64,000 bases of DNA from Lophium mytilinum (taxonomy: Eukaryota). The DNA lies in the NCBI GenBank assembly GCA_010093605.1, contig MU004190.1, forward strand, positions 186,001 through 250,000. Direction: 5' to 3'. The notes below the pieces were generated by a model. It saw only the letters and a program-made list of their open reading frames with translations, did not search any database and had not been told where the DNA came from. Shown in pieces: positions 8,297 to 54,275 of the stretch (position 1 is the first letter of the stretch; each line of letters begins with the position of its first letter). The translations under genes were made by a program, and so were the position numbers.

Positions 8297-11200
8297 CTAA
8301 CCTCTGTCCTCGGAGGGTTCCTCTTCTTGAACAAAATCATGATCTGGAGTAATATCTTCACCGGTCCGTATTTTCTGCACTAACTCATCCCAACTCATCC
8401 CGAAATACGTTTCTACCCTCTTCATGCCCACCATCTCCTTGATTGACTTTGCGACGCCCCCTTCTTGCGCTTTTTCATCCTTAATCGAAGGATAAGGATC
8501 TGCGCCTGCCCGCAGGAAGATTGGTATAAAGTCGTTGGGGCCCCAACGCACCGCTGCACATAACCCGCTATCCAGGTCTTTGTGGTAGGATTCAGGAAGA
8601 ATGGGATCACCGCCGCTTTCCAAGCAGGCCATCAATGCCGCTTTGTTTTTAAAAATTACAGCACACCTTATACCGTCACTGTAATCCCTTGGAGAGATGA
8701 ATCTAGACATGTTCCCCCAACGCTCTGGGAAACCACTCTGACCATTCTGACTTGTCGCGGTCGACTCTATGGCTGATGAGAAGAGCCCATCTGGCCGCAT
8801 CGTAACTGCGAACTCATCCACGAGGATCTCTAACGTTTTGTGACTAAGTTGTTCGAAAGCGGCTTGTATTGCCCTGGTCTTCTTTGATTTCCTCCTAGCG
8901 TACGGTATTGATATGCCTCGGGGGTACAGGAATCTCCTTCTGAAGTCCGGATGTATCACTCCCCCATCACCGGTAGGACTAGTACCGTTCCTCACCAGAG
9001 CTCTGAGTGTGGTGAAATTTTCGAGAAGAATTGAGACCAATAATGCATTCTCCAGGATGGTTGAAAGCGCCTTTGTATTCAGTCCGGTTGATCCACTGAC
9101 GCCCAACTGTTTACCCTGCAAGATCAAGTAGTCGATCAAGTCGCCCGACCCTTTCCAAGCTGCCAGTTGGAGGAGCAGATTGAAGTCGACATCTCGACCC
9201 TGCTCCGAAATAACAGGGATAATATTGCGGGTCAGTTCGAGGTCATCACTTAGAATTGTGTGTTCTAGCATCGCTGACAACTCCCTGGCAGTCAGCCCGC
9301 TCAGTTGAACGCCTGGTTGCAATCTGTCTCTGGGGTTTCCATGATCGGGATGAAAGGCGACACGGTGTTTTTGCAGATCCTCTTCGTACTGAAACCCAAG
9401 GCTAGCATATATGCAATTGGATGCCGGGCATCTGTTCAGCCTTCGATGCGTCTGTTCGTGACTGTCTCGTTCTACGATGCTGGAAAACCCGTTGTGATGA
9501 AATTGGCAGAATCTCCATTTGCATTTGAAGACTTTGGTGCCATAGAGCTTAGATAGGATCTGGCAGTCGCATTGCGTTGGGGACGAGGAGTGTTCACAGT
9601 TTTCTACCATGCTTCCTAATGCCACTTCAAAACGTTCCACGGCTAAGGACACCGCGGTGGGATCCTCGTATATCCAGTCCTCATCTACAGACCATGTCAG
9701 TGGACCTCCCTCGGTCAACGTCTGGATTAGGGATGTCTCACCATCCGGCGTTGTATGACCGTATCGAAGTCTGTCCAAGAATTGAGCTGAAGCAGCCAAT
9801 GAATTTTGGATAGTTGGTGCACCACTGAAGTATTGGAAGTCTGCTAGGAAAAAGCTTGAGCTATCGGACTCATCAGTCGTGGCCGTATTTCCTCGTTCTT
9901 TATAGAATCGAGCTAGAAGACGGTGTATCAAGTCGGCTCTTTCGTCCTCCAGCGTTGAATTTTGAGTCAATGCCCTTACGTGCTCTAACCAGAAGTCTGC
10001 AGCATACCGAAACAGGATGAAGTCTCCTGACAGTATTCGACTTTGCAAATTCTTTTCGTTCTGGTTGGCGAAATCAGCAGAGAAGATTTCGTCGAAGCAG
10101 TTGAACAAGAAAAACGTTAGACAACTTGATATTGCCTCAAAATGTCCGTCCATACGGCTCAAGAAGTTGTCGCTCTGCATCCCAAAGAGATACCTGTACG
10201 AGTATTTCGTCAATGCTGTCTTTTCTAATGTGTACAGCGTGCTGGAGGCCTTCACTTACTCGAATGCTGTGAAATGCACGAACCGAACCACACCGTCTTT
10301 CATCTCGATGACTGAACCGCATGCTGCGTTGATATCTAGCCATAGCTTCCTCTGTTTTGTGAAGTCTGTCATCAAAGAGTCAATGAGAAGGGCCTGCAGC
10401 ACTTCGCATTCAGTAAGTGGGACCTTGGCGCACCCAACCCACTGCAAGATTCGCTTGGCAATTGGATTGCCGTGAATGCGAATCAGAATGCGTTTGTATC
10501 TAAAAATAGTCAGAGAGAAGATCGGAAACGAAGAGAAGGGTCTCTATTTACGCTTGGTCAAGACCGTTGGGAAGGTTTGCCAGTTCTGCCCGTATGCTGT
10601 TGAGGTCTGGCTGGGATTTTGCAATCCCGAGAACTAGTTTAGCATATAGGAACATTCCTATTTATTCATTAATAACTTAGCACATTTAGAGGCACATTCA
10701 CGTAGTTGCTCACCCTTTGCTCTTGTCACGACTCCGTTCAGGCTGGCTGCTATCTCAGAACAGTCGGAGTCATCAGCACCAAGAGCCCTCAGCTCTGCGA
10801 ACCAACCCTTCGCCTCTGACTGAACATAACCTCCAATGTCCGGTCCATTATTCTCATCCACTCTTACAGATACCATTTTATCGTTGAAGGATCCCACGAT
10901 GTCACTCTCTGATCTCGCGCTTAGGAGTAATTTGAGGTTCTCACAACCTTCAAGCGCTTCTAGTAGCATCGGCGCGAGTTTTCTTCGTTTGTGATCGTTG
11001 ATTTCGTCAAGGCCGTCGACAACGACGAAAAGAGAACCAGAATCTTTCGCGATATTGAGGAACAGCTCTTTGACGAACTTGGAATCGCTGGTAAAGTCTT
11101 GCCTCTTGTTAGTGTAGGCGTCCCAGACTATTGGCACCAGCTTGTCATGGTCAGCATTGATAGCTTGAATGATGAGCGAATGTAGAATAGGAATTGGATC

Positions 11201-12438
11201 GCCGAGAAACTGTGAGTCATGAGACAGAAAGACAAACAACACGAGCCGGCCTTCGTTTCGTAAGTGATGAATAACATTAGCAGTTAAGTTTGTCTTGCCT
11301 GAAGCGTGAATTAGCTTGGTCTCTACCGTACCTTTTGCAATCACGTTGATAAAAGACCGATCGTCTACGAAGGAACACTCACCAGCGCCAGGTATGCCCC
11401 GAATCCACAAACCTTTTTCACTAAATGCCTTAGAATTGAGCCATGACTGGAATGCGAGGCTGCTGAAAAACCACTCGCCTGACCCCGCGGAAGTTGCCTC
11501 GATGGAACTATGCAGCTTTGAATGGCACGAAACGCTTGTCATGATGTCAGAAAGTATCTTGAGGCGCATCTGATTTTGATATTTCTTATCATCCTCGTGC
11601 TTCTGTAGGGTGATTCGGCGATGGTGATACGCCTGGAGAACATGCTCGAGTGTCACATTGCTATTCATTATCATCTTGTGATTCTCAATATTTCCTTGGA
11701 TGGCGGCTAGTTTTCTTCGAAAGGTAGGCCACAGCGCTTCGAGTGCCATGTGGAGACCTGTAGAGTAAAGGTATTAGTTTCGATGGCTGAGGGAGCAGTG
11801 ACATATAATGCTGTTCTTACCCTTTTTATTGAAGAAGTTCAACATCTCCATATGCAGGTCAAGAATATCGCGATAGAAGAGACACATCATGCTCTTGACC
11901 TCGTTGTTCTGATCAAACATTTTTGACTCAGCATATTTTCGGAATTGCGGGAGCATGGCCCCAACTTCTTTCAAGACACCAAGTAGCTTCTGGAACGCGG
12001 TGGCGACTGAACTGGCAAACTATAATATATTTGTCAGACCAGCTAAGCAAAGCAAGCATCTTTACCACCAAAATGAGACTAGAGTACTGACCTGGAGGAT
12101 CATCTTCAGAGGCCCCTAAATGGAGTTAGTGCCGATGCAATTTTTGCAATAACCCCTACACTCACCCAAATCAAGCAAATGAATTCAGGTTTCAGCTGAG
12201 CGAATGTGTCCATAGCGCCGATATAGTCTCGCAGGCCCTCTATGTAAGGCTCAATTCTCCTCAAGGCAACCAAACTTTTTGACTTCGACTGAATTTTCTG
12301 AATCTTCTCCACCTCGTCATACACATCTTCAATGGTTCCAAATCTGAGGAATTGATAGCTGAGCGGATTCTTCAGTTCGGAGAAGAAATCCCGCCTGGCA
12401 TCACTGAATGCATCCTCAAGCCATGCATTAGACGCCAT
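8297..12438 (-). CDS. NLR-like NACHT NTPase with N-terminal helical domain, C2H2 zinc fingers and degenerate ankyrin repeats, multi-exon
   Basis: Start MASNAWLEDAF at 12438; Walker A LWIRGIPGAG|KT after removing intron 11299-11382; Walker B FVVVDGLDE; VRFVHFTAFE|YL; C-x4-C...H-x3-H fingers (CKWRFC...HEQTH, CPASNC...HRVAFH); C-terminal LQLAAWKG and FLRAGADP ankyrin-like segments. Confidence 0.85.
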
Positions 12439-22919: not shown

Positions 22920-25749
22920 ATGGTCACTAGGTCTCAGAAGGCGCCCCAGAGGGCAAAGAGCTCACGAACCCGCGAGTTCATCGACGTTGACGCAGTCGCT
23001 GGGGATCAGCCTAGTTCGGGCGAAACCACTATCCTTGACGACTCCACCTACGTGGATCCAGAACCCTCCACCCAGGACAACGTGGGCGAGTCCGCAAGCT
23101 CTTCTTCGACGGCGCAGAATAGTGGTGCCGACACTCATAGTAAGATGTCTCCCTCCCGGGTTCTCACATATGCGCTCTAACACCTCATGTTTCTAGCGTT
23201 AATTAAGCAAGAGGCTCTTGCACAGCTCCACAGCCACGACATGGATACCATGTCCCGCCGCCCGAAGGAGCTAATCAAGGCGCTAAATCGCCTTTCCGAG
23301 CTTGGGCTTCAGAATTATGAAGTTCCATTACCAAACATCGTGGTTCTAGGGGACCAGTCGGCGGGAAAGTCTTCCGTTATTGAAGCGATTTCCGAAATCA
23401 CGGTCCCTCGAAGCTCTGGCACATGCACTCGCTGCCCCCTCCTGATCAAGTCTCTTGTGGATGATGAGCCCGGTGCCGTGTGGCGGTGCAAGGTAGACTT
23501 GCACAGGAACTTCGAATACTATGGCAAGACGTTTCCCCGGTCCATGGACAAAGATGTAATTTTCAAGCCCTGGGTAGCCAACGCCACTCCAGTTGTCGTA
23601 CCGTTCATGAGAGTGGACAACAAAGACGATCTACGCGACGCGATCCACCGGGCGCAGCTTGCTCTTTTGAACCCCGGCAAACCTTCGGCAAGCTACGCTT
23701 CTGGTCCAGTTCAAGCTATTGGAGACAGCAACGGCCTCCAATGCGAATTTACTCCAAATGTGGTGTCCATCGAGATCTCCGGTCCGGGGATGATCAATCT
23801 GTCATTCTATGATCTACCCGGAATAATCAACCAAACCGAAGATGAGGATAAGCCATGGCTCGTTAGCATTGTCAGGAACTTGGCCTGCAAATATATCGAG
23901 TCCCCGAACACGATCGTCTTACTTGCAAAGTCTATGGAGGTCGATCCTCAGAATTCCAGTGCGGCGAGATTAGCCCAGGAAGAGGGCGCGAATAACCGGT
24001 GCATTGGTCAGTACTCCCAAATCAGAACGTCGCCATAATTTCTAAGCCATACATACTAATATGTCAGCAGGTGTACTCACTAAACCGGACCGTATTCCCC
24101 GCGGCGATTCCGTCGTCATGTGGCAGCGAATGCTTAGCGGGGAAGCCTTCACGCTGCCACTTGGCTACTATGTCACTAAGCAGCCGTCCCAAGCAGATCT
24201 GAACCGCGAGACTGTGACCCACGATAGGGCACGTCAGCTTGAGAATAATTTCTTTGCATCCGCAAAGCCCTGGTGTACCGACTTTGCTAAATTCAAGCAC
24301 CGTTTTGGTACTGTTGCTCTGCAGAAAGCTTTGTATGATGAACTTGTTGGTCGCATGGTTAAAGGCCTGCCCAACATTCGCCAGTCCATCCGCGCGCAGA
24401 TCAACGATTTGGATGAAGAGCTCGAGAACATCCCGGAGCCCCCGACTCAAAACGCACAAGCTGCGGTCAATGAGCTAGTGCAGTCATTCGCAAACCAAGT
24501 GGCGAAACTGATGGAAGGGGAGCACCCATTCAACGAATGGCGTCTAACGTGGAAGAGTCAGCGACAATCGTTCCTGAACAACCTGACAACGATGCGACCG
24601 ACTCTGCGTATCCAAGGGTCTCTGGATACTGGGCTGTATCCGAATCAAATTGATTTAACCGCAGATTCGGATGATGATGAACAGTCGCCCTTGCCTTTGC
24701 GCATCGCTGCCACGCCTGTCGTCACTCCCTCGAAGCGTCGCAAGGTAGAGGAACCATCCACGCCGAGACAGACAATGCCACGACAACAAGCTCCGAAGAC
24801 CCCGACACACAATAGGGACCAAGCCCCGCCAAAAGTTTTCGAGTTGGATGACATTTGTAAAGCCCTCAACGACATGTCATCTTCTGACATTCCTAGGGAG
24901 GTTGACTCGAAAGCCCTCGACTTCCTCATTCTGGAGTCCCTGCAAGAATGGGATAGGCCTACGGACGCCTTCTTCCAGTCATTGGATAGAGCTTTGCGGG
25001 TCCAGCTGCGAGGAATCTTCGACCAAACCTTCGGAGCGTGGCAAACTAGCGAACTCTACAAAAAGTCGTGGGAGATTATCGATCAGTTCTTGAAGTTACA
25101 CATGACCGAGCAGCGCGAGACCTTGGCAATGCATGCGCTTAACGTTGAGCGAGAGAAGCCTTTCGCCGGCGATGACCAACTTTGGGATCACCACATCTCC
25201 GAAGCCTTAGTCGCACTCCAACATGCGCGCACCATGAGACGACTCACGATATACGCCAATGAAAAGGCAGATGTCACTGGGAAGGAAGTCAAGCCATCAG
25301 AATTGGCCGGGTTGAAGTCGAAACCAGAGGTGGCGAAGATCGTCACGAACGACCCGTACCGTCGCGAGGTCGAAGTGATGGCGAAAATCCGAGGTTACTA
25401 CAAGATCGCGTCCGTCCGATTCTACAGCAACATCTGTCTGAGCCTGCAAAGCAAATTGTTCAAGATGCTTCGACTGTCTTTGCGCCACGAAATTACGATC
25501 GGTCTGGGTGTCTTCGCGGATGACGGTAAGCCTCCTCATTTCCTCTGTTTTACCTTTCGTACTAATTTAGCAAAAGGTCGCGACCGCTGCAAAGTACTTC
25601 TCGAAGAAGATCCACAGCGAGCCGAGCAACGACGCGTGCTTCTCAACAAGCGCCTGGCCCTGGTCGAAGGTCAAAAATGTCTTGATGACTTGTTGGACAA
25701 GTACAAGGACGCGAATGACGATGACGTCGACAGCATGGAGATATGCTGA
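22920..25749 (+). CDS. Dynamin-superfamily GTPase (fungal Mx-like), multi-exon
   Basis: G1 GDQSAGKSS, G2 GTCTRCP, G3 DLPG, G4 GVLTKPD; C-terminal GED-like region (MAKIRGYYKIASVRF...LLEEDP); introns about 23139-23197, 24008-24070 and 25526-25576. Confidence 0.9.
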
Positions 25750-27663
25750 GCTATGGTGACCGGACAGATCTTGTTTCGCCTCGGTTCTTCCATAGCTCTC
25801 GCCTGTTCTTGCGAATAGCTTGTGATCTTCATGGATGGTAAGATGGACGATGTGCTTCAGGAACCTCGCAGGAGACCTGGCTGTGCTATCCATTGGCATA
25901 CGAGATCCCGTATCATGGCCTATCTCTTTCACTGTCAGTTCTTGTGGTTGATGGCTCTCCCTTTTAAGGTTGCGCTTTCAATGCTGGTTCATCTGCTGCT
26001 TTTCTTTCCAAAATCTGGGTTTCCTTGGCTACTTTTCCTCTTCTCCGACGAAGGCTTGGGTTGGATCGCGATTGGTCTGGCATCGCCCCGCGCTCTGAGC
26101 ATATTGCGTCGCTGTGCACGATTACCAAGCGCTGCGCATCGGAAACCTGTCTCGAGCTCAAATGTCTCAGCGCTAGGATCAACAGGCCTCAATGTTGGCT
26201 TCCAATTTCCTTTGCCTATCTCGGTGTTTCAGAATTGGTCTCATGGCCAGCTTTTGGTAGTCACCAGCAATGATGACACTTTCCCTAATCTTCTGACTTT
26301 TGAATACTCGAAGTGACTAGATTACTGCTTGAAACATCGTGTGTACTCCTACTACTGACTCCCAGCGTCAAAGTTACTCAATCGCGAAGCATGAGCAACG
26401 CCGCTCCTCGTGTCTTCATGACTGTAAGGTAATCTATTTGCATATGCTTAAGACGTACTAAAACTCGCAGCCCAGAAGTCCGAAATCGACTATAGTCACT
26501 CGCATTCCCTCCTCCCATCCCTCCCCGCCATCTCTGGTGCCCTCATGCTCCGCACCGCCGCCGAGACGAATCCTACCACCGCGGTAACTGCCAAAACTCC
26601 CTCCGGGTCTTCCGTCGCAGACATAGCCGCGTCTACCACGATACCACCGCTGATACATCAATCAACCTTCCCGACGGCAAAAGCTTTCTCCAGGGCCCCA
26701 GGACGAATAGCGGCCGCGCCGATTCGGAGCTCGACGATTGGGAGTTTGGTAGCATAATCGCGCCCTTTGCGCCTTGAGGCAATGGACATAGCAAGAGGAG
26801 GATGCCGCGGAGTTCGGTACGGGGAGTTGCGGAAGTCTGAGTTCAGGGGGGGAAGCTGCCGTGCGGGAGGGTTGATTGGGGGTCTGGAGTTTGTTCTTGC
26901 ATGGGAAAAGGAGAGCAACACCTCTCGTCGTGTGATTGGTAGGGTGATGAGAATGTATGGGTTAGAAAAGCAATTTTGCCTTCGTCAATACCGTCCCCAA
27001 AAAGCTGCCATGTCTCTGTTATCTTCTTCATACTTTTTCCTACTAACCCCTCTGCTTTCTTTCTCACACATTCCACGTGTAAGACTTCTTCGACGCTTTG
27101 CCGATAGGCGCAACCCCCCTTCACCAATCTTGATACCCTTGTTTAGACGGAGTGGAAACGATTGATAATCTATATGAGAAATCTCACGATGAAGCAAGAG
27201 GCGCTTCAGACTTTGGTCTTTTGCGACGAGTGGTTGGCTATGCCCATCGTCTTAGCTTGTATTTTCTCTTTTCCTGGTAACATTACATACTTAGTTTTTA
27301 GCTATGACTTCTTTCTTTTGAGGTGTTTCCATGTCTTGAATCAGCTCCGTTCAAAGAGCCTTACTCCAGCGTAGACATAACTCCTCTTCCGCGAAATCAA
27401 GTCTAGCATCTTGACTCCACATCGGTGACTCTCAGAGGCGGAGATGGCACATGAGACACTCTGACTCGCTTATGAGATGTCAATCGTCGAAGGAGTGATT
27501 CCGAGAGCATCAAAGTGCTCTGACTGAAATGGGGTTGCCATTCTCTATAAAACCTAGGCACCCTACCTATCTTCTCTCTTTAACATCCCTTACGAACATT
27601 CAAATACTTAAGCACCACTTCTCCATTCAACCATTTACAAAGCCAAACGAACAACTATTCACG

Positions 27664-28312
27664 ATGAAGGCATATCTTATCCTCATCGCTGCTCTCTTTT
27701 CCGCGTCTGCCTTTGGCCATCCGGGTAACGGTGGGGCCTTCAAAGACGGGAAAGCGCATGGGCATAACCACGGTCATCATGGCCGTAACATGAAAGCGGA
27801 CTGGATTCCTAGATTTGGAATGCCATCATGGGGAAAGAGGGAAGACGACCAGGACAAAAACGTGTACTATCTCGCCAATTGTAGCAATGCCAATCCCTAC
27901 TACCTCCTCCTCTACAGCGACTTCAGCAAGTCGTACGACCCTAAGAACGAACCCACCTTCCGCGAAGCTCTTCAATACGTAGTCGATACCTTCAAGTTAG
28001 CAGCAAGCTCCGGGCATCAAGACTCTGGCTTCGAGGCCACCTTTAAAGACTTGGGTGCGAGTTGGTATGGGATTGATAACGGGAGCCGGTTGGGGTCTGG
28101 GAAGGATCGCTATGGTCCCTTGTATTGCTACAAGGATACCGGTCGGACATTATGGCAAGGGAGCACAGAAACTGAAATATGTTATGCGTGGTATTTCTGC
28201 TGGCGGAAAGGTCGTGGAACGGTAAGATAGAATTTTGTACTGAGTTGCAGTGACCAAGTGAGACATTGATTGTGCTAACTATAGACAGCCTAAAATAACT
28301 AAGCCGGGGTAA
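27664..28312 (+). CDS. Small secreted 4-Cys protein, array copy 1 (His-rich pro-region, KR site)
   Basis: Signal peptide MKAYLILIAALFSASAFG; GKR|EDDQDKNVYYLANC ... CYKDTGRTLW ... CYAWYFCWRK; intron from 28222 (acceptor 28284 or 28288). Confidence 0.8.
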
Positions 28313-29073
28313 TCTAAATGAAGGATTGATGAGGACTTTACTTGATGGCTCTTCGCATCATGAGGCCAGGTTTCGATACTCAGTAGAGCTGTACTTGCTA
28401 TCTTTTCGTTGGAGGGATGCTTTGTACCATCTTTGTCTTTCATAGAGTTTTGTCAAATTGTAGTCTCGAAGATGCTCTTGTTAGAGTAGTACCCCAGGTT
28501 TCAAATATGCGGTGATGAGGTATCGTCCCCTGAACGCAGGAAGGAGCCGCATGCATGCACTGTTTAATTCTTTTCTTTCTCTCTAGATAGTTGCGTAGCC
28601 TTATTACCATATTCCAGTTTTCATAGACCTGTTACGTTCAGCACAAGATTCAATTGACCAAGGCGGACTGATCCTTCTGACTGTGCCTACCATTTTTAGT
28701 CTTTGACGAAGACTCCCTCTCGGAATCTTAATAATTTTCTATTTTTCACCGCCCTACACTTTTAAAAGAGTCATTTCGATCTGACTGCTCTTTCTTCGAT
28801 GTGAAGGTAGTGCTGGTTCGACCCAGACCGGTGACTCAGGATCGGGATCGTGGCATATACGACGCACCGAAACCGCGATGAATTATTGACTAGCAAAAAG
28901 ATCTTGCAGAGGCGGGAAGAACCGTTATGACTGTATTACTGTAGCTGTCGACCATAAAAAGGTGTGCAAACCACAATCTTCTGCTTCTCTCTACACTTCA
29001 CACATCCACAATAGCACTACCCTCAGCTTTACCAACAAACACTCATAATCATCAAACATTACGACGAGGAAAT

Positions 29074-29703
29074 ATGAACCAGCAATTCCTTTTCATCCTT
29101 TTCCTGTGCCTCGCCGCTTCCGTTCTTGCTCTCCCTGGCAAACCTCGCCATGAGAGCAACCCTACGCACGAAAGTCACGCATTCGACTTCTCACGTCTAC
29201 AGCAAAGACAAGTCGACAGGGGATTCAACAACGTGTACTACCTCGCCAATTGTGCTGGCGGTTCGAAAGTGGCTTTTTACGAAAACATGGATGATTCTCA
29301 CGATCCCAGCCATCAGCCTGATATTACCCAAACGGCCATTGGCAGTAAAGGTCGTATAGACGCGTCGCATTTGATGGTGGTATGGGAGGATAACACAATA
29401 AAGATGTTGGAAGACACATCCAGAGATTTCGAGGTGCATATCAAGAAAATAAAATGGCATAAGGAAAAGGCAGCTATACCTGCGGGGGGTGGCGCAGATC
29501 GAGACGGGCCGTTGGCATGTTTCAAGGATAATGGAAGGAATCTTTTCCAAGCAGTCAGAGGGGACAGATGTAGCGCCTTCTACTTTTGTTGGCGGAAGGC
29601 TCATGCTCAGGTACGTTCTCTCTCTGCAACTTATGCTTTGTGAGGGGTTTATACTAAGCTGTAAAAGCCCGTACCGACGGAACCTGGGGAGGTTCATGAG
29701 TGA
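29074..29703 (+). CDS. Small secreted 4-Cys protein, array copy 2
   Basis: Signal peptide; LQQR|QVDRGFNNVYYLANC ... CFKDNGRNLF ... CSAFYFCWRK; intron 29611-29667, last exon PVPTEPGEVHE*. Confidence 0.8.
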
Positions 29704-30401
29704 TCCTTCGGAGCCTAAGGTTTTTGGTGGTCAATTATTTCTGTTCTACTCTTATAGACTTTGTTTTTATTGCAGCATTTATGCTGGGGCGGCCAGGTGA
29801 GAAGCACTGGTATTGTCGGGTTCTGTATGCGTGTTATTCTTCATACCCTCTTAAGAACATCATTTTCTTATTGTATATTATTCAGTTCTTCTGTTTCAAC
29901 TAGAAAATCTTCAATTTACTGAAAGTGACCGCGAGACATTGACGATAAGAACGGCAAGGATAACGATGACTAGGCCACCCTCAGCCTCCCTCACAAATGG
30001 AAAAGCAGCATCCCTTTCTTCTACTTTGAATAGCTGCATAATTGACACTCTATGTCTCACTGCCGAACACTATTCGAAAATTCTATTCGTGACTCCTTTT
30101 CCCCCGCTATGAATGTAATGCCAGATTGACTGTACGAACGTGATTCTCAGATTTGCAAACGTAGCATGAAAGATATACTAGTGTAACTAGACATGAGTCT
30201 GCAAAAGAATCATGCCGATATGAGCAAGATGTTTATGACTACGAAGGTCTTGGTACTCCCTATAAAACATAGACGCTATGCTTCCAACCAAGTCTTCTAA
30301 CCTCAACGGCCCGCAAATAAGTCTCTTGCCTCGACATCATTGAAAACCTTTACTACCTAAATTCTTTCTCAACCAACGAAACCAAACAACCCTTCCACTC
30401 G

Positions 30402-30981
30402 ATGACCATCATGATCTGGTCTATTCTCATTTTAGCATTTCGGCTGCTGGCCTTTGCTTCCGCATCCCCGCTGCCTAGCCCTAGTGGCACCCCTCTCACA
30501 CCTCAGGAGATCGCGAAGAACGTATACTACCTCGTCAACTGTCCGTCCGGAGCCAGGATCGCTTTTTACGACAACATAGACAACTCTCAAGGTGGCGAAA
30601 CTCCATTAATCACGTACAACGTGTCTGCTTCAGTACCAATCGACCATACTCAACAAGTATACTGGGGAGGTCAGACCTACTTTACCGATCCCGACGCGAA
30701 CCAGTTTCGAGTCACGGTCAAGGGAGATTGGTCCATGTATAACTACAAGAAAAGTGTAGGGGGAGGCAGTGATGGGAGGGGACAGTGGCTATGTTTTGGG
30801 GACAATGCAAGGATGCTTTGGACAGATACGTCCGGGAAATCCTGGCAGGATGAGCCTGGTTCAGCCTGTCAAACTAGATACTACTGCCGGCGAGAGGGCT
30901 ATGATTCAGTAAGACCTTAACCCGGCTAGATTTGTCGTTAAGACAAGGCTAACTTCACCTTAGGTTCCTCCACAGCCTTAA
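30402..30981 (+). CDS. Small secreted 4-Cys protein, array copy 3
   Basis: Signal peptide; KNVYYLVNC ... CFGDNARMLW ... CQTRYYCRR; intron 30909-30963, last exon VPPQP*. Confidence 0.8.
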
Positions 30982-31649
30982 TTGATTGTGATGGATCAAC
31001 TGCTGTTTTTGTTTAGCAGCAAGTTTGCTTACATGGGGTGGAGTTATGTTCGACTGGTGGAATTACACTGTTTGTCCCCATTGTTTTCCATTGGCTATCT
31101 TCTATTGGTGGTATTAGATTGTTTGTTTCTATGTATTTTCTACTGTAAATCTTTGATTCGCGGAAAGTGTTAAGCTTGAGTTCTGATATGCACAATGACC
31201 GCAACCCCACGGCTCCTACAAAGCCACGATAGATGAAACTGTTCCAACCTGCCTCCGCTAAATAATGAAAATAGTGTGGTCATCTTCCCCTCCGGACAAC
31301 CTGCAGAAATGAGAGTCGGTGCCTCACTAATATACACTATTTGTATGCTCATTTCTGACTCCTTTCCCCCAAACGTGAACGCTGAATGGAGTGCTCGCTT
31401 GACTCACCTGGATAACTCTTACAATTGCAAATCTGGCTTGGAGAAAGCCTAGTCATCTTCGCACTGTCAGTCGTCAGAAGACTAATGCCGGTATGGACAA
31501 GTCATTATGACTTTGACGGCCTTTCCGCTCTCTATAAAGCCAGGTGCTACCTTCCTCTTCTGCCTTCAACAACTTGCAACCATATTCGATCACCACAAAC
31601 CACGATTCTAAACTCCAACAATACCAAAGTACTGAAACCGCTGTCCAGG

Positions 31650-32180
31650 ATGAAGATCTACTTCGTACTCATCACTGCTCTTTTCTCTGCTTGTGCCTTC
31701 GGCCTTCCTGGTGATGGAAAGCGCTGGAACGCCAAAAAGCGCTATACGCAGAATCAACCTCCACATCATGACCCCACTTCCCACTGGCCTCGCAAACGCA
31801 TGGATGACACGCTCAAGAACAACGTCTACTATCTCGCCGACTGTATTCCAGGAGGGTCGGTGATCGCTTACTACGGCGACATAGACTGGTCTCAGAAGGG
31901 CGTATATCCTGACTGTTTTGGGTTTCCGAAGGACTCTCCACAATGGGGAAATGACACTCAGATCGGGGCCGCTGCCGGCGATAGGCACATCACGATTCCC
32001 CCGTGGAAATGGGTATGGGATTCAGCTAAAGTCGGAACTCAAGCGGGAGACCTTCATGACGAATTCGGAGGCCAGAAAGGAGACTGGCAGTGTTATCAGG
32101 ACAATAAAAGGCTGCTGGTAATTTTGCCGGGGGACAAAAAGTGCCAAGCTCGGTTTTGGTGCAGGCGAAAGGGGCTTTGA
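31650..32180 (+). CDS. Small secreted Cys protein, array copy 4
   Basis: MKIYFVLITALFSACAFG; RKR|MDDTLKNNVYYLADC ... QKGDWQCYQDNKRLL ... CQARFWCRRK; predicted 3'-UTR intron 32185-32239. Confidence 0.8.
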   Translation: MKIYFVLITALFSACAFGLPGDGKRWNAKKRYTQNQPPHHDPTSHWPRKRMDDTLKNNVYYLADCIPGGSVIAYYGDIDWSQKGVYPDCFGFPKDSPQWGNDTQIGAAAGDRHITIPPWKWVWDSAKVGTQAGDLHDEFGGQKGDWQCYQDNKRLLVILPGDKKCQARFWCRRKGL

Positions 32181-32716
32181 AACGGTACGTCTTGACCCTG
32201 TTATAAGTCGGTTCTGAATATCTGCTTATTGAATTGTAGCATCGCCGCATCCTGTGCATCACACTTAGGCAGTAGTGCTAGCGGAGAAAGCTTCCACTTG
32301 ATAGGCTACCTCTTTAGCCGGAGTTTTGTTGCCAGCTAGAAACTTATGTTGTTTTCCTAGAGTTTTCTTTTGTTGCAACCTTCCTCGCCATGCAAGCGAG
32401 GTATTAGGGTTAATTTTGTTTGGTGGCTTTAGGATGTCAGTTTCATTAAATCTCCTGGAGCGGGTCCTTTATTCAGCGAAGTGTTTCATGATCAAGCTTT
32501 GATGTCCAAAATGACCGCAACACCATGACTCCCACAGCGCCAAGCTGTACATGTGCTATGACTGTTCCTACTCCAACCTCCGCTATAAAGTGAGAATATC
32601 ACACTGCTTCCAAACTTCAATCAATCGCTAGGAAATCTCCCTAATTTCAGAATCTAGCAAGCAAGCAGCACACCATACACATATCCATTGTCCGAGCTTC
32701 TATCAAACTTTCAAGT

Positions 32717-33181
32717 ATGATGGAGGTCTTGCTCATTGTCATCTTAGCATTCAAGCTCCTTTACACCTCTTCTGCATCGCCGCTCCCTGATAGCCCACTC
32801 ACTCGCAGAGCTGAGCCCAACAAGAATGTCTGGTACCTCTCCGACTGCAATGGCGGTGCAACCATCGCCTACTACGACAACATAGACAACACTCAGCAAG
32901 GACAAGCACCCCTCGCCGCAGATTTTGTCTATCTAAAACACCCAGTGAGCTGGGGAGTCGATGATATCCAGTCCAAATTTGCGGAAAGGAGCGTTACAAT
33001 CCCCGTTTGGAAACAGACATGGATTCCATCCCACGTCTTACTACCCGGACGTCTTCAAGACAAATTCAGGAACCAGAAAGGGGATTGGCAATGTTATCAG
33101 GATACGGGAAGGTCGCTGTGGAAGTTGGATAACGTTGGAGACTGTAAAGCTCAGTTTTATTGCAAGCGAGTAGTCCTTTGA
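32717..33181 (+). CDS. Small secreted 4-Cys protein, array copy 5
   Basis: Signal peptide; LTRR|AEPNKNVWYLSDC ... QKGDWQCYQDTGRSLW ... CKAQFYCKR; predicted 3'-UTR intron 33186-33239. Confidence 0.8.
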   Translation: MMEVLLIVILAFKLLYTSSASPLPDSPLTRRAEPNKNVWYLSDCNGGATIAYYDNIDNTQQGQAPLAADFVYLKHPVSWGVDDIQSKFAERSVTIPVWKQTWIPSHVLLPGRLQDKFRNQKGDWQCYQDTGRSLWKLDNVGDCKAQFYCKRVVL

Positions 33182-33741
33182 AATGGTGAGACTTGCCTCT
33201 TTGACGTTAGCTCTTGGATATGTGCTCATGATATCGTAGCTTCAGGTGCACCTCACTGGGACAGTAGCTGTTAGACGAAGATGAAGGAGTTTCCATCGAA
33301 TGTGCTACTGTTTCTAGAGCGAGATATGTTGAAGGCCATAGATTTCTTCTTTCTCTTATGGTATCTCCTTTTTTCTGATCTTCATGGCAATCTGGCAGCG
33401 TAGGCCATAATTCAGGCTCTTTGAAATGTGCTCAACCTCTATGAGTCTATAATTCGAGTTTTTCCAACCGTGATTCATTCTCATCGTCGTTTTCGCCGAT
33501 GATACCTCAAGAAGCGCGAAGTGGCCGCAAGATCATGACTCTAGAAACTTCGAGCTACTTATGAGTGGTCTAGAGTCTTCTTTCGCTATATAAGGGGGCA
33601 GCATATTCCTCTCCTTCTCTTTCTTCAACAAACCTCACTCCAGTTCTCGAAACCTGCTATCCACCTCACAATCACACAACCAGGCTCTCTATCGATTCTT
33701 CAAAACCGGTACCATACCAATCAGACACACTCAATACCACC

Positions 33742-34283
33742 ATGATTTGGTCTTCCGCTGTTCTGGCTCTTCAGCTATTGGCCACTTGTGATGCATCGCC
33801 GCTTATCCAGCATGATGGATGGAACGAGAACAATGACAACGTTTACTACCTTGCGAATTGCAAACTCGACTCGAAGATCATGTATTATAGCGATATCAAG
33901 ATCTCTTATACAGACGAACATCGGGCCCAGACCACCACCGACCAATACAGGCCTCCCTTCCCCGGGGGGTGGGAAGGCAAAACCATTCTAGCATGGGGAC
34001 CCAACCCGACGTCCCGAAACTTCAACGTCACTATTTTTAGCAGGACATGGACGAAAGACAAGAATGTTGGGGCACTGGCAGGTCACGCTACCGACTGGTC
34101 TGGTGGATCGTGGGATTGCTTTCAGGATAACGGGAGGTGGTTGTATAAGGACCCCGAGGACTGTTCTGCTCAGTATATCTGTGGGCGAGCCGGCGTTGCG
34201 TTAGTAAGTCTATTTATGCTTCAGCTCTTAGTGAAATGATGCTTATTCGATTGCAGGCTCCTCACCCAATGCCTAGCTCGTAG
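33742..34283 (+). CDS. Small secreted 4-Cys protein, array copy 6
   Basis: Signal peptide; NDNVYYLANC ... WEG ... CFQDNGRWLY ... CSAQYICGR; intron 34204-34256, last exon APHPMPSS*. Confidence 0.8.
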
Positions 34284-42384: not shown

Positions 42385-42773
42385 CCAGCGAAGATTCTTG
42401 GAATTCACGGGCCTAGTGAATGAAACGCGATCGCGATCCTTGGGCGGCGTTGGCGACTCGATAGCAAGCGCCGTTTGTTGTTTCATTCTGCCTCGCCCTA
42501 TTGTGATGCTAGACAATATGATTCTGAAGTGAGAGGATAGGCACATGCCAAGCACGCCCGTGTTCTAATCTATCGACTCACCTCCAGGCAGGCACACGAC
42601 AACCTCAACAACACACGCCCGACACCGCCTGGCCATATACTGGCGTCCCCCGGCCCTCTCTCTCTGCATGCCGCTTCTGTATGTTGCCGCCCCTCCTCCG
42701 CCGCGAAGACTGCCTCCCAGGCCCGCAGCTTGCTAAGAAACTTCGCCTGCAGCCAGACGGAAGCGTCAACACC

Positions 42774-45700
42774 ATGCCCGGCCAGCTAGCCATCTCACCT
42801 CTCTTTGGGGCTCCCGCCGGCAGCAGAGAAGACGTATCCAAATCTTCAATACCTTCAAGATCCCCAACAAGTAGCGAGAAAACTTGCCCGGAAGCGCCTC
42901 TCAGCCTCTTTGAGGCCGTTGTCACTGCTTTCCCGCCCGTCCTCGAGTCGTTGCTCTCACAACTGCCAACAACATCAATATTCGACTTATACCATACCTC
43001 TCCTCACCTTCGCGAGTTTCTACAATCATATCCGTTAGCATGGAAGACACTGTCGTTCCGCCTACCTCAGCCGCCTAACCAGGCTATAGCAACCCCGGGG
43101 AACGAAACACCGGATGGCCGAGAGAGGCAGTCGAAAACTTATGCTCTCGATGCCTTGCTGATGGAAGTAGTGGTGCCGTTTGGAACCCGACTACGCAACC
43201 TAGACCTATGCAATACCGCCGTCTCTGGCGTGGCCCTAATCGCAAAAGTGCTTCAACCGCGCATCGAAACGCTACAGCACCTCTCCGTCCGTGGCTGCAA
43301 GAATGTGTCCATCAAATACCATATTGTCCCCTTCCTAGAGCCGTACACCCAAAAGGACTCGCCATGGGCTAAGAGAGGGGATCTGGCTTTGAAAAGCTTG
43401 TATGCATACCGCTGCCGGCACCACCGTCGGAGACCCTACCTTCCATCTTCCTTAGGCCGGAGAGACTCGGACTCGGATCCAACCCATCAACTAATCGAAA
43501 TATGTCATAAGCTTGGAATCTGGACCGATACTGCTTGGTGCCCCACTCCTGGTGGGAGATGCTTCAGGCGGAAGGACTATCATAACGGCCGTGGTGGGCC
43601 AGGGAACACGGAAGTTTGGGTGCCATTCGACAGGCTATGGCGGTCTAGCAACCGCATTGGACCCGCCGATGAAAGCGCCCCTGTTGGACACTCGGATGGA
43701 AGGCTATGGGAGCTTTGCGAGGATGGCCAGGACGGGGAGCCGCTTGGGCCTGAAAAGGGGCCTCCAGGGAAGGAAGGAAAGGACGTTCCCGCACATCTAC
43801 GCCGAAGCCACCAACTTTTTGTGGACGATTTGAAATGCTCCCGGTGCCACGACCCCATACACGAACGGTGCGAGCAGTGCAGCGTACGGATGCACTGCAT
43901 GGGCTGCCGCAAGACACTCTGTGCCAGCTGTGCATTCAACAGGCCAGTCCCTAGGAAGCGTACCAAAACCCGACATACAAACATCATGCTAGGCACCATT
44001 GCTCCGATGACCTCGATATTTTCCTCATCGTCGACGTTGGACGATGTCAAGGAGCAATCTTCGAAAGAGAGGTTTTGGTGGGCACCGGGCACGGTCCGAT
44101 CCCCAAATCTCATGCATGAGCCTGCCGGTGATGATGACTCGGATTCCGACGATGGAATATTGAATCACATCAACAACGGAATGGGTCCAGCGCCGATAGC
44201 ACCTCCAAAACTCAATATGCACTGGTGTTGCATGGAGCCCGTATTCTCAGGAGGAGGTGGCATCGCCTTCGTAGGACCCGGCCTTGCTGGCAAGGGCGCA
44301 GACAAAATACGAGCAGCACCTCTCCCCCGCATTAAGAAGTACGAGGACCCCGACTTCACATACCAGCTCCGTTCGTTCGATCCTCTCCGAGATTTGAAGC
44401 AGAGTGGGCTTTACACACACCTGCTTAACGAAGATCTGAATGTCATAGAATATCTAAAGCAGGACAGTCTCGACCTGCAGGCGTCAACGTGCCCACGGGG
44501 CCTCTGCCAAGAGTGCTACCAATCGTTCCGATGGAAAGTCTCGTGTAAAGCGTGCAAGAGTCCGCTTTGCAAAGAGCACGATTTCAGGGCTCTTAAGATT
44601 CGAAAGTGCGGATACCGGGATCTGCATGTTGAGCGCGACTACGTGCGGAATCATAAAGAGCTTCCACAGTTCATTATCCCGCCTTTCAGATCTGCGGCCC
44701 CGTCATCCAACAAGGCCGAAGAAATAATTGACGACAATGAAAGCTTTACTTCCGGCGAAGCAATGTCTATAAACGCTACTGACCTCGATATCGAGCCAGT
44801 AGTCTCCGGTTCGCTTTCTCAATCTCAAATACTGCCACCAAATCCGATATCGCTCGCACCAGCTGCTCCACCAGCTATGTCCGCCTCTACATCCGCCCAT
44901 TCTCACCAGTCGACTACTCCCAACGATATCCCTTTCACAGTTCACGTTTCGGTACCGGTCACTCCTTCTCGTCCACGTTCGTTGAGTGCGTCAAACTCCC
45001 GCAGCCGTAGCGCAGCATTGTGGCCACACTCTCCCCGCCCGGTAGCTTCTACCTTGATAAACATGATACCTCGACCAGGTAATCCTCGACATCCCGTCCA
45101 ATGGGAAGGCTGTGGGTCGTATTACTGCCCTGCTACGAGACATTTGGGGGACAACAGGCCGCGATGCCAGGAGCTTATCAGAGAGTGCGAGGACTGTCGA
45201 GTGTTGGTTTGCAGTGTATGTTTGCAGTTTCACTTTCTGGCTCCCGTCCACTTAAGAATATGGCTAATGTATCTACTTGGTGTCTAGACCTGCGCATCTG
45301 CTAATCCAGAGTGCACCTGCTCGTTTTGCTCCGTCCACTACTTCTGCCCGCATTGCAACGGCAAGCCGGAAATCCAGACACAGTGCGTGCTCGAAGAAGA
45401 GCTCGAGGTAGCCCGCGTCAAAGAAGTCAAGATGAAGGAGCGGCTGGTGCGGGAGAAAGAGCAGCGCGCGGTTGCGGATAAACTTGCTGAAACTTTATTA
45501 GAGTTCTGGGAGGGTTTACTGGGAGATGTGGCTGCTGAGACTTTCAGTGAAACCTCTGAAACCACCTCCTCTCCAGAAACGACTTCGAATTTCATACCGG
45601 AAGGAAGTCCGGACTTCAGCATCCCGGCTGTGAGTGCCTCGTCGAGTCCCTCAGCGACAGAGGAAACATCCGGAGATGTAGTAGAGCCTCCTCCTGTTGG

Positions 45701-50676: not shown

Positions 50677-52017
50677 TCATGTCGTAGTCGCTTTTTCGTT
50701 ATCTGGAGGTGTGATCGTGGCATTCTCGTCCTTCTTCAGATTTGCGAGGCATGGTGCGTGAAAGAGTTTTCCGTCCCAAGCGCCTCTAGCGGTACCGATA
50801 GCGACTACAATCCAAAGCAAGATTACGGCAACACTGAAGATAGTGCCGAGGACCTTGAAAAACTGACTTGGCATCTGGTTTCCAAGTTCGATCGTGCTGA
50901 CCGCATAGACACCGAGAGGGAAGGTGAACCCCCACCACCCCATATTGAACGGAAACGGGCGAGATTTGTAGATCGACGCGAGAGCGAAAGCAAACCAGAT
51001 GAGGCCGAATCCCCACATAATAAGCGCCAAGAATACACCAAGGATGTATACAACGTCTCCTGCAACAGCTAAATCGTGGAAGAAGTGGACTTGAGGAAAG
51101 ACTTCTCGCGAGACTTTTCCGAGATACATTATCGTATAGCCGCCCATTCCAAGGGGACCAAGTGGCAGGAATGACGAAACCACAATCTCACGAGGAGGAA
51201 GTTTGTGAAGTGCCAGCCGTTGGTAGTAAATGACCAGAACTGTCATGGCCAGAGGAGTGGCCATACCCCACATTACATACGACGTGATGAGAGTTCCCAA
51301 TGCATGATCGGGATTCGGGAGCACCTCCGCAATCTCAGCACCGGCGCCAGCAGCAACAATAGTAGCTGCTATAGGCAGCAGCTGTGCAGCTGTGATGCGG
51401 TCCAGGGCTTGTTGATGAGATTGTGATATCAGAAGGAAGGTCAACGACACCGTAACAGCTCCAGCGACGATGCAGTCTATCATCCAGCACACCCAGGCAA
51501 ATGTAACTGCCCAAGGCCCCCAATAGGGGATGCAAAGAAAGATCCAACTTTCTACCAACGTAGCGAATCCCATTGGAAGAGTACCGAGAAAGAGCGAATT
51601 CGTACTGTCGTGGATCATTACCGTCCATATGGCGGGATAAAGCGTGTATCGGAGGATTGAAATGCCGAAAGCTAAAGCAAATAGCAGGGTGTTCAATGCA
51701 AAGAAGACCACAGACATCCAGTACAGCCAATCGCTCTGGAACGGGATGGTGATGAATAGTAAAGAAACAATCCCAGTGCCCATAGTAACGGAGAACCAGG
51801 AAGGGCTGAAATTCCGCACAACCCGTCGCCAGCCAACATCGTATTTAGTCACTTGATCCGGTGGAGGCTCCGTGATTACATCCTGCTCTCCCGAAGGATC
51901 TGAGGTCGTGGCATGGGGGTGGCGATGTGATGATCTCTGGCGAACCAGGCTTGGTGTAGATGCCAAAGCGGGCTTACCTGAAGCCAGGCGTGTGAGATCA
52001 TGATCAGAATCTTGCAT
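50677..52017 (-). CDS. TDT/SLAC1-family transporter (sulfite efflux/C4-dicarboxylate, SSU1-like)
   Basis: NFSPSWFSVTMGTG, SLFLGTLPMG, FLPLGPLG, FNMGWWGFTFPLG; about 10 transmembrane helices. Confidence 0.9.
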   Translation of the reverse strand: MQDSDHDLTRLASGKPALASTPSLVRQRSSHRHPHATTSDPSGEQDVITEPPPDQVTKYDVGWRRVVRNFSPSWFSVTMGTGIVSLLFITIPFQSDWLYWMSVVFFALNTLLFALAFGISILRYTLYPAIWTVMIHDSTNSLFLGTLPMGFATLVESWIFLCIPYWGPWAVTFAWVCWMIDCIVAGAVTVSLTFLLISQSHQQALDRITAAQLLPIAATIVAAGAGAEIAEVLPNPDHALGTLITSYVMWGMATPLAMTVLVIYYQRLALHKLPPREIVVSSFLPLGPLGMGGYTIMYLGKVSREVFPQVHFFHDLAVAGDVVYILGVFLALIMWGFGLIWFAFALASIYKSRPFPFNMGWWGFTFPLGVYAVSTIELGNQMPSQFFKVLGTIFSVAVILLWIVVAIGTARGAWDGKLFHAPCLANLKKDENATITPPDNEKATTT

Positions 52018-52613
52018 AGTGGTTGGGGCTCAGCTATAATCCAAGAAGTCACGTATAATAGAAGCGCAGATGAAAATCAATGATGTTGAAATTTGAGATC
52101 GGAGTCACGGATGTGGCCCACTTTGTAAGTGGTACAGAGAAAGTGGTAATTAAATTACTTCTATCGTAGGTAATCAGTGCCCTCCTTGAATATAGCCACC
52201 CGACTTAACCCCTTCTACACCCCCCTACATTGCCTCCCACTCGCTTTATTTACCGGTCTTGTCGTTGCTTTACTCTGATCCATAGGACTAATCCCCGGCG
52301 TAATCCAAACATGAACCTCCATGGCAATAGCGACGGGCCATTGGCATGCGCCACAACCGCTTATGGTCCTCCCTCTTTGCATTGCAGTCAATGGTGAAGT
52401 AGATAGACTGTTTCCTCAATTCGCCTCAAGTTCCGCGCCCCTCTTCCCTTATCGATTCTATCAGCACGTCTCAATGCCACGGACCAGCTTGCGGATTATG
52501 GCATTGCCGGTTTTACTTATCTTCATACCTTCCCATAATTAAGATAGAAAAAAAAAGCATCTTCGTGAAGAACACGACTTGTATAATAGCGGTATTAAAG
52601 AGCAAAGAGATGC

Positions 52614-53763: not shown

Positions 53764-54275
53764 ACTACCAGCACCCCGACGGGGATGCTGTTTTAGGTCG
53801 AGCCGGGCATCTCAATCTGAGGTTAATGTTTCAGGGGGATGGACATGCGACTCGTTGCATGACGTTGCTTGACTATGGACCAAGATGCCTCGGATTCCGA
53901 GGACTTTGCTATTGCTACGCTACCTCTTGGTTCATATTGTGTTGGGTGGATGTTGTCTAGATCATTCTCACTGGCCGCTATGAACTGAATGCGCTTCATT
54001 TGCTCTTTTTTGAATTCATTCGCTCCGTTATCATTTTCCGCGAGGCTGCATACACAATGTTTGACGCTTTACCACCGTCACAAAACTTTCAGGCCCTTTC
54101 GATGCCCTTCTGGAATCAACATATGGAGTACTAAACCGCCATGGTCGTCTGCATCAACTCCAAACTTTATCATCATCGCTTTTATTCACTCTGGACGGCA
54201 GCAAAACCGCTTCACATTTGCGCGATACCACGATATCATCGATCAAACTTGAGCGAACATCCTCGACCAAACGGC

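Follow-up and report, generated by a model that had tools for sequence, protein, structure and literature searches.

What do six small, secreted-type proteins, encoded side by side in the genome of the fungus Lophium mytilinum, a member of the Mytilinidiales (PMC12910237), do? Their genes occupy positions 27664 to 34283 of a 64,000-nucleotide (nt) stretch of contig MU004190.1 (assembly GCA_010093605.1, forward-strand positions 186,001 to 250,000), which is referred to here as the window and in which all coordinates are given. The initial annotation, made from the letters alone, described a tandem array of highly diverged, small secreted cysteine proteins and proposed them as candidate effectors or toxins. 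Judged by profile searches, the six copies are not orphans, but divergent members of a wide, unnamed secreted domain family. In soil Alphaproteobacteria this domain takes the place of a known wall-binding module on chitinase-type enzymes, and we tentatively read the six copies as binders of chitin or peptidoglycan, produced from promoters that share one element at a fixed distance from the TATA box.

The layout of the array was confirmed. Six same-strand open reading frames (ORFs) start at 27664, 29074, 30411, 31650, 32717 and 33742, with spacings of 1410, 1337, 1239, 1067 and 1025 nt, as expected from the one gene every 1.0-1.4 kb described before. Scanning all six frames of the window, in 1541 segments from stop to stop, recovered exactly these six, and no seventh copy. 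All six frames are intact and open, encode 154-193 amino acids (aa) and carry four aligned cysteines. Alignment of the products gave 17 invariant columns, four of them Cys, which include N-V-x-Y-L-x-x-C, Y, W, G, D, G, C-x-x-D-x-x-R-x-L and C-x5-C-x-R, while pairwise domain identity is 25-44%, bearing out the claim of a shared cysteine frame in proteins that differ strongly elsewhere. As a qualification to the label of cysteine proteins, the domains hold only four Cys each (five in copy 4). In all six proteins the N-terminus contains the most hydrophobic stretch (Kyte-Doolittle, KD11, 2.1-3.1 versus at most 1.33 elsewhere). The processing sites described ahead of the domain were also found: copies 1, 4 and 5 have KR or RR there, copy 2 has L-x-x-R, and copies 3 and 6 have neither. 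Of the His-rich pro-regions claimed for three copies, enrichment is clear only in copy 1 (6 of 42 residues), being modest in copies 2 (3/26) and 4 (3/32).

Each gene contains a GT-AG intron that begins 21-22 nt past the last Cys codon, a common position that the initial annotation missed, together with the fixed-distance promoter element. The intron lies within the coding sequence in copies 1, 2, 3 and 6, and directly after the stop codon in copies 4 and 5. On the + strand, copy 1 (193 aa, record P0009) consists of exons 27664-28221 and 28289-28312 around an intron at 28222-28288, and encodes a His-containing pro-region, a KR site and the domain at 27859-28200. Copy 2 (+, 190 aa, P0013) has exons 29074-29610 and 29668-29703, an intron at 29611-29667, an LxxR site and its domain at 29230-29589. 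In copy 3 (+, 171 aa, P0010), exons 30411-30908 and 30964-30981 flank an intron at 30909-30963, and the domain (30519-30887) is not preceded by a dibasic site. The same absence was noted in copy 6 (+, 162 aa, P0014; exons 33742-34203 and 34257-34283, intron 34204-34256, domain 33838-34182). Copies 4 (+, 176 aa, 31650-32180) and 5 (+, 154 aa, 32717-33181) have one coding exon each and a predicted intron in the 3' untranslated region (32185-32239 and 33186-33239, respectively); the former has a KR site and its domain at 31821-32162, the latter an LTRR site and its domain at 32825-33163. The models of copies 1, 2, 3, 5 and 6 equal public protein records letter for letter, and the records for identical proteins are labelled Lophium mytilinum hypothetical proteins. 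The public model of copy 4 (P0015, 31650-32275) splices out the last two conserved Cys and is probably a mis-annotation. Because of this loss, we preferred the unspliced 176-aa frame, which retains both Cys and stops 4 nt ahead of the shared intron. The array contains neither long DNA repeats nor transposon ends, the repeats found there being coding motifs and the promoter element. It also shows no signature of repeat-induced point mutation (RIP), as RIP indices over the array resemble those of the flanks.

When 1.84 billion representatives were searched with a profile of the six domains, 82 matched at E ≤0.001: the six window copies, three models from Mytilinidion resinicola, one further L. 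mytilinum gene on another contig (P0046), three false matches and 69 others. The false ones, P0034 and P0037 (SH3 repeats) and P0079 (TPR), were dropped. The domain is about 115 aa long, of secreted type, and follows the pattern E-x-Y-L-x-N-C, Y-Y, W-E-G, G-x-G-x-N, C-(Y/F)-K-D-x-x-R-x-L and C-x-S-x-Y-Y-C; its spread covers Ascomycota, Tulasnella and a few bacteria. Among 20 members looked up by identity, the named ones belong to Trichoderma (labelled 'SSCRP'), Tulasnella and Lindgomyces, and most are unnamed metagenome proteins. Moreover, copy 5 and the Trichoderma member adjoin the same unnamed ascomycete clusters in the ESM Atlas (score 0.92), where a structure match of copy 5 also reached two clusters of 361-389 aa (template modelling score, TM, 0.58 over 111-113 residues). 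The domain also occurs doubled (P0022, P0041), and 28 of 67 single-domain members have a KR/RR/LxxR site. In favour of the binder reading given below, every copy has an aromatic residue at the conserved aromatic columns 6, 24, 50 and 115, and five copies have one at columns 23 and 116. As a separate observation, P0057, P0067 and L012:1092-2234 are fungal-looking proteins of 340-380 aa with the domain at the N-terminus and a Cys-flanked hydrophobic stretch at the end; their C-terminal 230 aa gave no Pfam family in the two that were scanned, and proteins of this type may be those of the 361-389 aa Atlas clusters.

In agreement with the initial annotation, no Pfam or NCBIfam model names this family. 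The six copies gave nothing below E 0.05 in Pfam and no match in NCBIfam; the Pfam search of 55 family members gave four single-member matches, none of them over the domain family. A sequence search of the PDB reached E 0.3 and 0.43 at best, values expected by chance, and tblastn against phages and plasmids gave no match. A description of the family was not found in a literature search, for which the family offers no searchable name and whose coverage excluded subscription journals and bioRxiv supplements.

The strongest indication of function comes from bacterial homologs. When GTDB genomes were scanned, two from Alphaproteobacteria proved to have the domain, in both at the C-terminus of a GH18 protein after a Pro-rich linker. 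Likewise, 11 of 14 longer homologs begin with PF00704 (GH18), from which a Pro-rich linker leads to the domain, and most of 10 metagenome loci have the same build. The GH18 part has a visible catalytic DxDxE, and its closest solved relative is 6k7z, labelled a GH18 chitinase (E 1e-34). In one alphaproteobacterial order, this GH18 is present in 8 of 244 genomes, and in two of these eight it ends in the domain. The six sister GH18s end differently. Three have Pfam-confirmed LysM at this place, present four times each in L016 and L021 and once in L020; another has a tail that visibly resembles that of L020 but was unreported by Pfam, one has an unassigned repeat, and one has no tail. P0118, a GH18-domain protein, is 50% identical over 310 aa to the LysM-bearing protein of L016. 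LysM is a chitin- and peptidoglycan-binding module; as the domain fills the LysM slot on GH18, it therefore most likely binds chitin or peptidoglycan. Such reasoning, termed 'module walking', has been used for muramidase wall-binding domains (PMC10394673). In the bacterial homologs the domain is thus an appended non-catalytic domain, as in a carbohydrate-binding module (CBM) in the CAZy sense, while the six window copies stand alone. Other partners were found below the cut-off, namely DUF7888 (E 2e-4), the end of a CAP domain (E 0.049) and a tail resembling CVNH or mannose-binding lectins (E 0.1 and 8e-4), and these varied partners point to a modular use of the domain. Two side observations belong here. 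The alphaproteobacterial GH18 subfamily (L016:1480-3003, L020-L023) swaps its C-terminal module freely between the domain, one or four LysM, a repeat or none, the repeat (L023:2362-3249) being an unassigned unit of about 290 aa with no sequence match in the PDB. P0024, P0036, P0075, P0115 and P0029, which are probably bacterial, combine the domain with DUF7888, with three unnamed N-terminal regions or with a CVNH-like tail.

Structure prediction, proposed in the initial annotation as a check together with Foldseek, yielded confident beta models and no fold assignment. AlphaFold2 (67 sequences) modelled copy 5 with a predicted local distance difference test score (pLDDT) of 86.7 and a predicted TM score (pTM) of 0.82, and the Trichoderma member with 88.7 and 0.80. 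Both models have nine strands in similar order and at most one short helix. Compared by VIA-align with 48,161 chains, copy 5 reached at best Z 5.7 (Rhs core; root-mean-square deviation, rmsd, 2.7; 72 residues aligned) and the Trichoderma member Z 4.1 (rmsd 5.0, 91 aligned), both below the typical background of 7-8 for this tool. The best rows are generic beta-barrels and sheets, and the scores assign no fold. Foldseek gave no hit at E ≤0.001 for both models against the PDB, or for the Trichoderma model against viral models. ToxA, MAX, LARS, FOLD, KP4/KP6 and known CBM chains were not among the best 50 rows for either model, which neither speaks against these folds nor establishes a new one. 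Two disulfides, Cys1-Cys3 and Cys2-Cys4, are probable: 70 of 80 alignment rows keep all four cysteines and one loses exactly Cys1 and Cys3, although a single informative row is too thin to prove the pairing. The domains of the six copies have a net charge of -2 to 0 and an isoelectric point (pI) of 5.3-6.9, and no hydrophobic segment is present in the mature domain.

We then focused on the promoters. In the six 400-nt upstream regions, TGACT is the top-enriched 5-mer, with 19 occurrences versus 4.3 in shuffles (reached in 0 of 500), and its enrichment is confined to the sense strand. In each of the six genes, the distance from the start of TGA(C/G)T to the TATA box is exactly 25 nt, on the + strand throughout. 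The core promoter of copy 1 (27519-27551) has TCTGACT and TATA at 27546, with TGACTC at 27412, 27426 and 27462; that of copy 2 (28926-28958) has TATGACT and a CATAAA box at 28953, with TGACTCA at 28832. TATGACT is also the element of copies 3 (30234-30266, TATA at 30261, TGACTC at 30090), 4 (31506-31538, TATA at 31533, TGACTC at 31356 and TGACTCA at 31400) and 5 (32557-32589, TATA at 32584, CATGACTCC around 32526), and copy 6 (33560-33592) has TATGAGT and TATA at 33587, with CATGACTCT around 33536. Among 75 TATA-like hexamers in the window, six have TGA(C/G)T at this distance, and these belong to exactly the six array genes, a pattern that was defined after being seen and in copies that share ancestry. 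Between copies, the 7-nt element is 90% identical, the spacer to the TATA box 31% and the flank 26%. This contrast between element and spacer indicates that both the sequence of the element and its distance to the TATA box are under selection. The spacing may also be kept across genera, as hinted by an over-long N-terminus in the M. resinicola model of copy 1, which aligns at the peptide level to the copy 1 promoter (E 2e-9), with Met-Thr at the TGACT element and Ser-Ile-Lys at the TATA box. Holding a 7-nt element at a fixed TATA distance while spacer and proteins diverged, the six copies offer a clean natural experiment in promoter evolution.

In addition, sense TGACTC occurs within 400 nt of the start in 6/6 copies versus 106 of 640 GC-matched windows, and nine times in the six upstream regions versus 1.4 in shuffles (0 of 500 reach this count). 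The full ATGA(C/G)TCAT is absent from these regions, which hold one site with a single mismatch. According to PMC10833574, TGACTC is bound in Magnaporthe by the bZIP factor BIP1 upstream of small secreted proteins, a LysM effector and a chitinase. Similarly, PMC4835503 describes ATGAnTCAT as the site of IDI-4, enriched among bacteria-induced genes of Podospora, as are small secreted proteins. For BasR, no binding site emerged from PMC6234034. By the presence of this site in 6/6 promoters, the array genes resemble putative targets of TGACTC-binding bZIP factors (Gcn4/CpcA, BIP1, IDI-4), and we infer that TGACTC is a bZIP-type element here and that, with the shared TATA-proximal element, the array may be co-regulated; the shared element points to one induction signal. 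Elsewhere in the window, the upstream region (51617-52417) of a SLAC1-family gene (52017, -) has three sense TGACT within 400 nt, and is the only one of 16 control promoters with more than one.

The family history was examined next. Three related models exist in M. resinicola, on a contig equal in length to the one with its Dph2, and the accession of one of them is five numbers away from that of Dph2, for which reason the array probably predates the Lophium/Mytilinidion split. The best M. resinicola matches, with orthology taken from BLAST score alone, are 45% identical for copy 1, 40% for copy 3, 42% for copy 5 and 43% for copy 6, versus 89% for Dph2. This accords with the local, diversifying expansion of a small secreted family suggested initially. 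Two M. resinicola models, P0011 and P0012, begin inside promoter DNA, and P0012 joins two truncated domains, which suggests broken or mis-joined copies and gene loss in that species. A tree built by a quick method (80 rows, 121 columns, P0011 and P0012 left out) groups the six copies with P0016 and P0046 (Shimodaira-Hasegawa-like approximate likelihood ratio test, SH-aLRT, 83), though long branches make the grouping unsure; several copies are long-branched, with terminal branches up to 2.66 versus a median of 0.77. Judged by these comparisons, the six genes are old tandem duplicates that evolve much faster than the neighbouring Dph2. The same tree groups 9 of 10 rows labelled probably bacterial (SH-aLRT 92), compatible with a single entry of the domain into bacteria.

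Based on these results, we give close to an even chance to the reading that the copies are secreted, disulfide-held, non-catalytic binders of GlcNAc wall polymers (chitin or peptidoglycan). The proteins would be secreted by means of a signal peptide, with Kex2-type trimming of copies 1, 2, 4 and 5, and two disulfides would hold the nearly all-beta domain. They would then bind N-acetylglucosamine wall polymers much like stand-alone LysM proteins, the target being either the fungus's own wall, which would be shielded, or the walls of competitors. A TGACTC-binding bZIP factor could induce the genes jointly under starvation or microbial contact, and the divergent loops may give the copies differing ligand preferences. 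A bolder version is rather unlikely, namely that this is a new chitin- or peptidoglycan-binding family of beta architecture without a close solved relative, secreted as a stand-alone protein by fungi of both Ascomycota and Basidiomycota, its six diverged versions in this wood-inhabiting species forming an inducible repertoire with differing wall-glycan specificities, driven by one bZIP element of fixed geometry, for recognition or shielding against microbial competitors.

Several points weigh against this interpretation. The module position is seen in the bacterial homologs alone, and its transfer to the six divergent copies is by analogy. The GH18 fusions are 86-100% identical within the domain and hence go back to a single event in a single lineage. 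Bacteria seldom carry the domain (1 of 401 genomes sampled from the class), and a module placed behind a linker can also serve for anchoring, dimerisation or protein binding. Identity between the six copies and other members is only about 25%, and a profile of 61 non-Mytilinidiales members, which scores the six at 42-66 bits versus at most 10.8 for shuffles, is not independent but a consistency check, its members having come from the six-copy search. Moreover, a family-conserved Glu is Asn in 6/6 copies and a conserved Asn is Asp in 6/6, and the W-E-G motif is eroded (Glu kept in two copies, Gly in two), so that the ligand site may have been changed or lost. The TATA-proximal element fits only 5-6 of the nine bases of ATGAnTCAT. 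One expression value counts weakly in its favour. The T. reesei member 109370, only 22-29% identical to the six copies, is listed in PMC3599271 with a log2 change of +1.6 after overgrowing Rhizoctonia solani, as one of 424 regulated genes, a value looked up after the fact and barely above that paper's cut-off of 1.5. PMC4061448 lists it as about 3.4-fold down in a lae1 deletion, and both values are weak; 109370 is absent from 11 supplements of PMC3998047. Spliced contigs from a same-species RNA run (X1, contigs only) lie on either flank, and no contig covers 26.4-35.0 kb, which says nothing on expression either way.

The effector or toxin label was not supported as stated: the family is wide, its KR/RR/LxxR site is common family-wide and absent from two of the six copies, the copies are not cationic, and the domain sits in a GH18 accessory position, although a role in microbial antagonism is compatible with glycan binding. 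That the copies are antimicrobial or toxin-like effectors acting on proteins or membranes of competitors, diversified in an arms race, appears fairly unlikely. It would account for their rapid divergence (40-45% to Mytilinidion counterparts versus 89% for Dph2; terminal branches up to 2.66 versus 0.77), for the pro-regions with a processing site in 4/6, and for the long C-terminal region with a Cys-flanked hydrophobic end in P0057, P0067 and L012, and the Podospora genes of PMC4835503 fit as well. Nevertheless, no toxin family was matched in Pfam or NCBIfam, the domain serves as an accessory module in its bacterial setting, the mature domain lacks a hydrophobic segment, and its neutral-to-acidic charge speaks against a cationic toxin. 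AFP/PAF-type antifungal or defensin-like proteins combine strong positive charge with 6-8 Cys in about 50-60 aa, and identity with them was rejected (net charge -2 to 0, pI 5.3-6.9, 4-5 Cys in 114-125 aa). Somewhat less probable still are small-ligand-binding or catalytic beta-barrels (lipocalin, avidin or dirigent-like) for a metabolite, lipid or plant defence compound, with Glu, Asp, Arg and Asn lining a pocket. The family does conserve such columns and the weak structural neighbours are mostly barrels of this kind (Z 3-4), yet such values do not rise above the background stated for the tool, the six copies have lost two conserved polar residues, and the exchange with LysM on GH18 is left unexplained.

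Redundant duplicates drifting under relaxed selection, some of them nearing loss, would explain the eroded family residues and the joined truncated domains of P0012. This is improbable in view of six open frames with four aligned Cys, the missing RIP signature and an element 90% identical between copies next to a spacer at 31%. Very improbable, finally, are plant-directed effectors serving a living phase in conifer bark. The anatomy is typical of effector candidates and recalls Kex2-processed pro-domain effectors known in Dothideomycetes and Fusarium (ToxA, Tox3 and FOLD types), with which the copies share a hydrophobic leader (6/6), predicted cleavage sites (4/6), a disulfide-held beta domain and clustered genes; on the other hand, sequence matches to solved structures are absent, the processing site is optional and the family extends beyond plant pathogens, into Trichoderma and soil bacteria. 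Mytilinidioid fungi are, in addition, saprotrophs. They are described on bark in PMC11514609, which also counts against a plant-directed role, whereas clustered effector-candidate families of diverged small secreted proteins in Venturia (PMC9632046) and the control of Magnaporthe effector genes by TGACTC (PMC10833574) speak for it.

Returning to wall-glycan binding, the closest functional parallel is LysM (CBM50). Stand-alone secreted fungal LysM proteins (Ecp6/Slp type) are wall-glycan binders. The array-type domain shares with LysM the C-terminal slot on closely related GH18 enzymes and the occurrence alone or doubled as a secreted fungal protein. It differs in size and build (about 115 aa, nine strands and four Cys versus a repeat of about 45 aa), and PF01476 is unmatched in the six copies and 55 family members, while sister GH18 tails do match. 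The Trichoderma TRIREDRAFT_109370 cluster belongs to the same family, with four Cys, YY, W-E-G, C-x-x-D-x-x-R-x-L and a similar strand order; it differs in its low identity to the copies, its 'SSCRP' label is generic, and the literature search gave only rows of expression tables. Alt a 1-like proteins (Alt a 1, PevD1, Tsp1) are likewise small secreted fungal beta-barrels with disulfides. Copy 5 aligned to Tsp1 with Z 3.9 (rmsd 3.8, 91 aligned), to PevD1 with 3.7 (4.6, 87) and to Alt a 1 with 3.6 (4.3, 86), all within background; over both models the Alt a 1 fold gave Z 3.2-3.9, rmsd 3.8-7.3, 86-100 aligned residues, and a Foldseek E of 0.19 with TM 0.27. Identity is 5-8%, and Pfam gave no Alt a 1 match (copies to E 1, 55 members to E 0.05). 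Tandem clusters and stand-alone wall-glycan binders are already known; the domain itself has neither a family model nor a description that could be found. Should it bind chitin or peptidoglycan, it would found a new family of carbohydrate-binding modules and assign hundreds of 'hypothetical secreted proteins' (Atlas clusters of 200, 143 and 129 members) to the shielding of walls or to microbial antagonism.

The array is flanked by a dynamin-like gene on one side, and by FAD oxidoreductase, P450 and Dph2 genes on the other. The first of these, directly upstream, is a spliced dynamin-family GTPase gene at 23187-25749 (+), whose introns are seen in the X1 contigs. Further away, ORFs at 8297-11749 (-) resemble, by eye, a NACHT-type NTPase followed by zinc-finger and ankyrin-like regions, as in a fungal NLR-like gene. 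An 868-aa ORF at 42681-45287 (+) is rich in Cys pairs and matches no Pfam family at E 1e-5, and a 336-aa ORF at 54141-55151 (+) combines a short heptad repeat (KNDI-type) with C-terminal Cys/His repeats.

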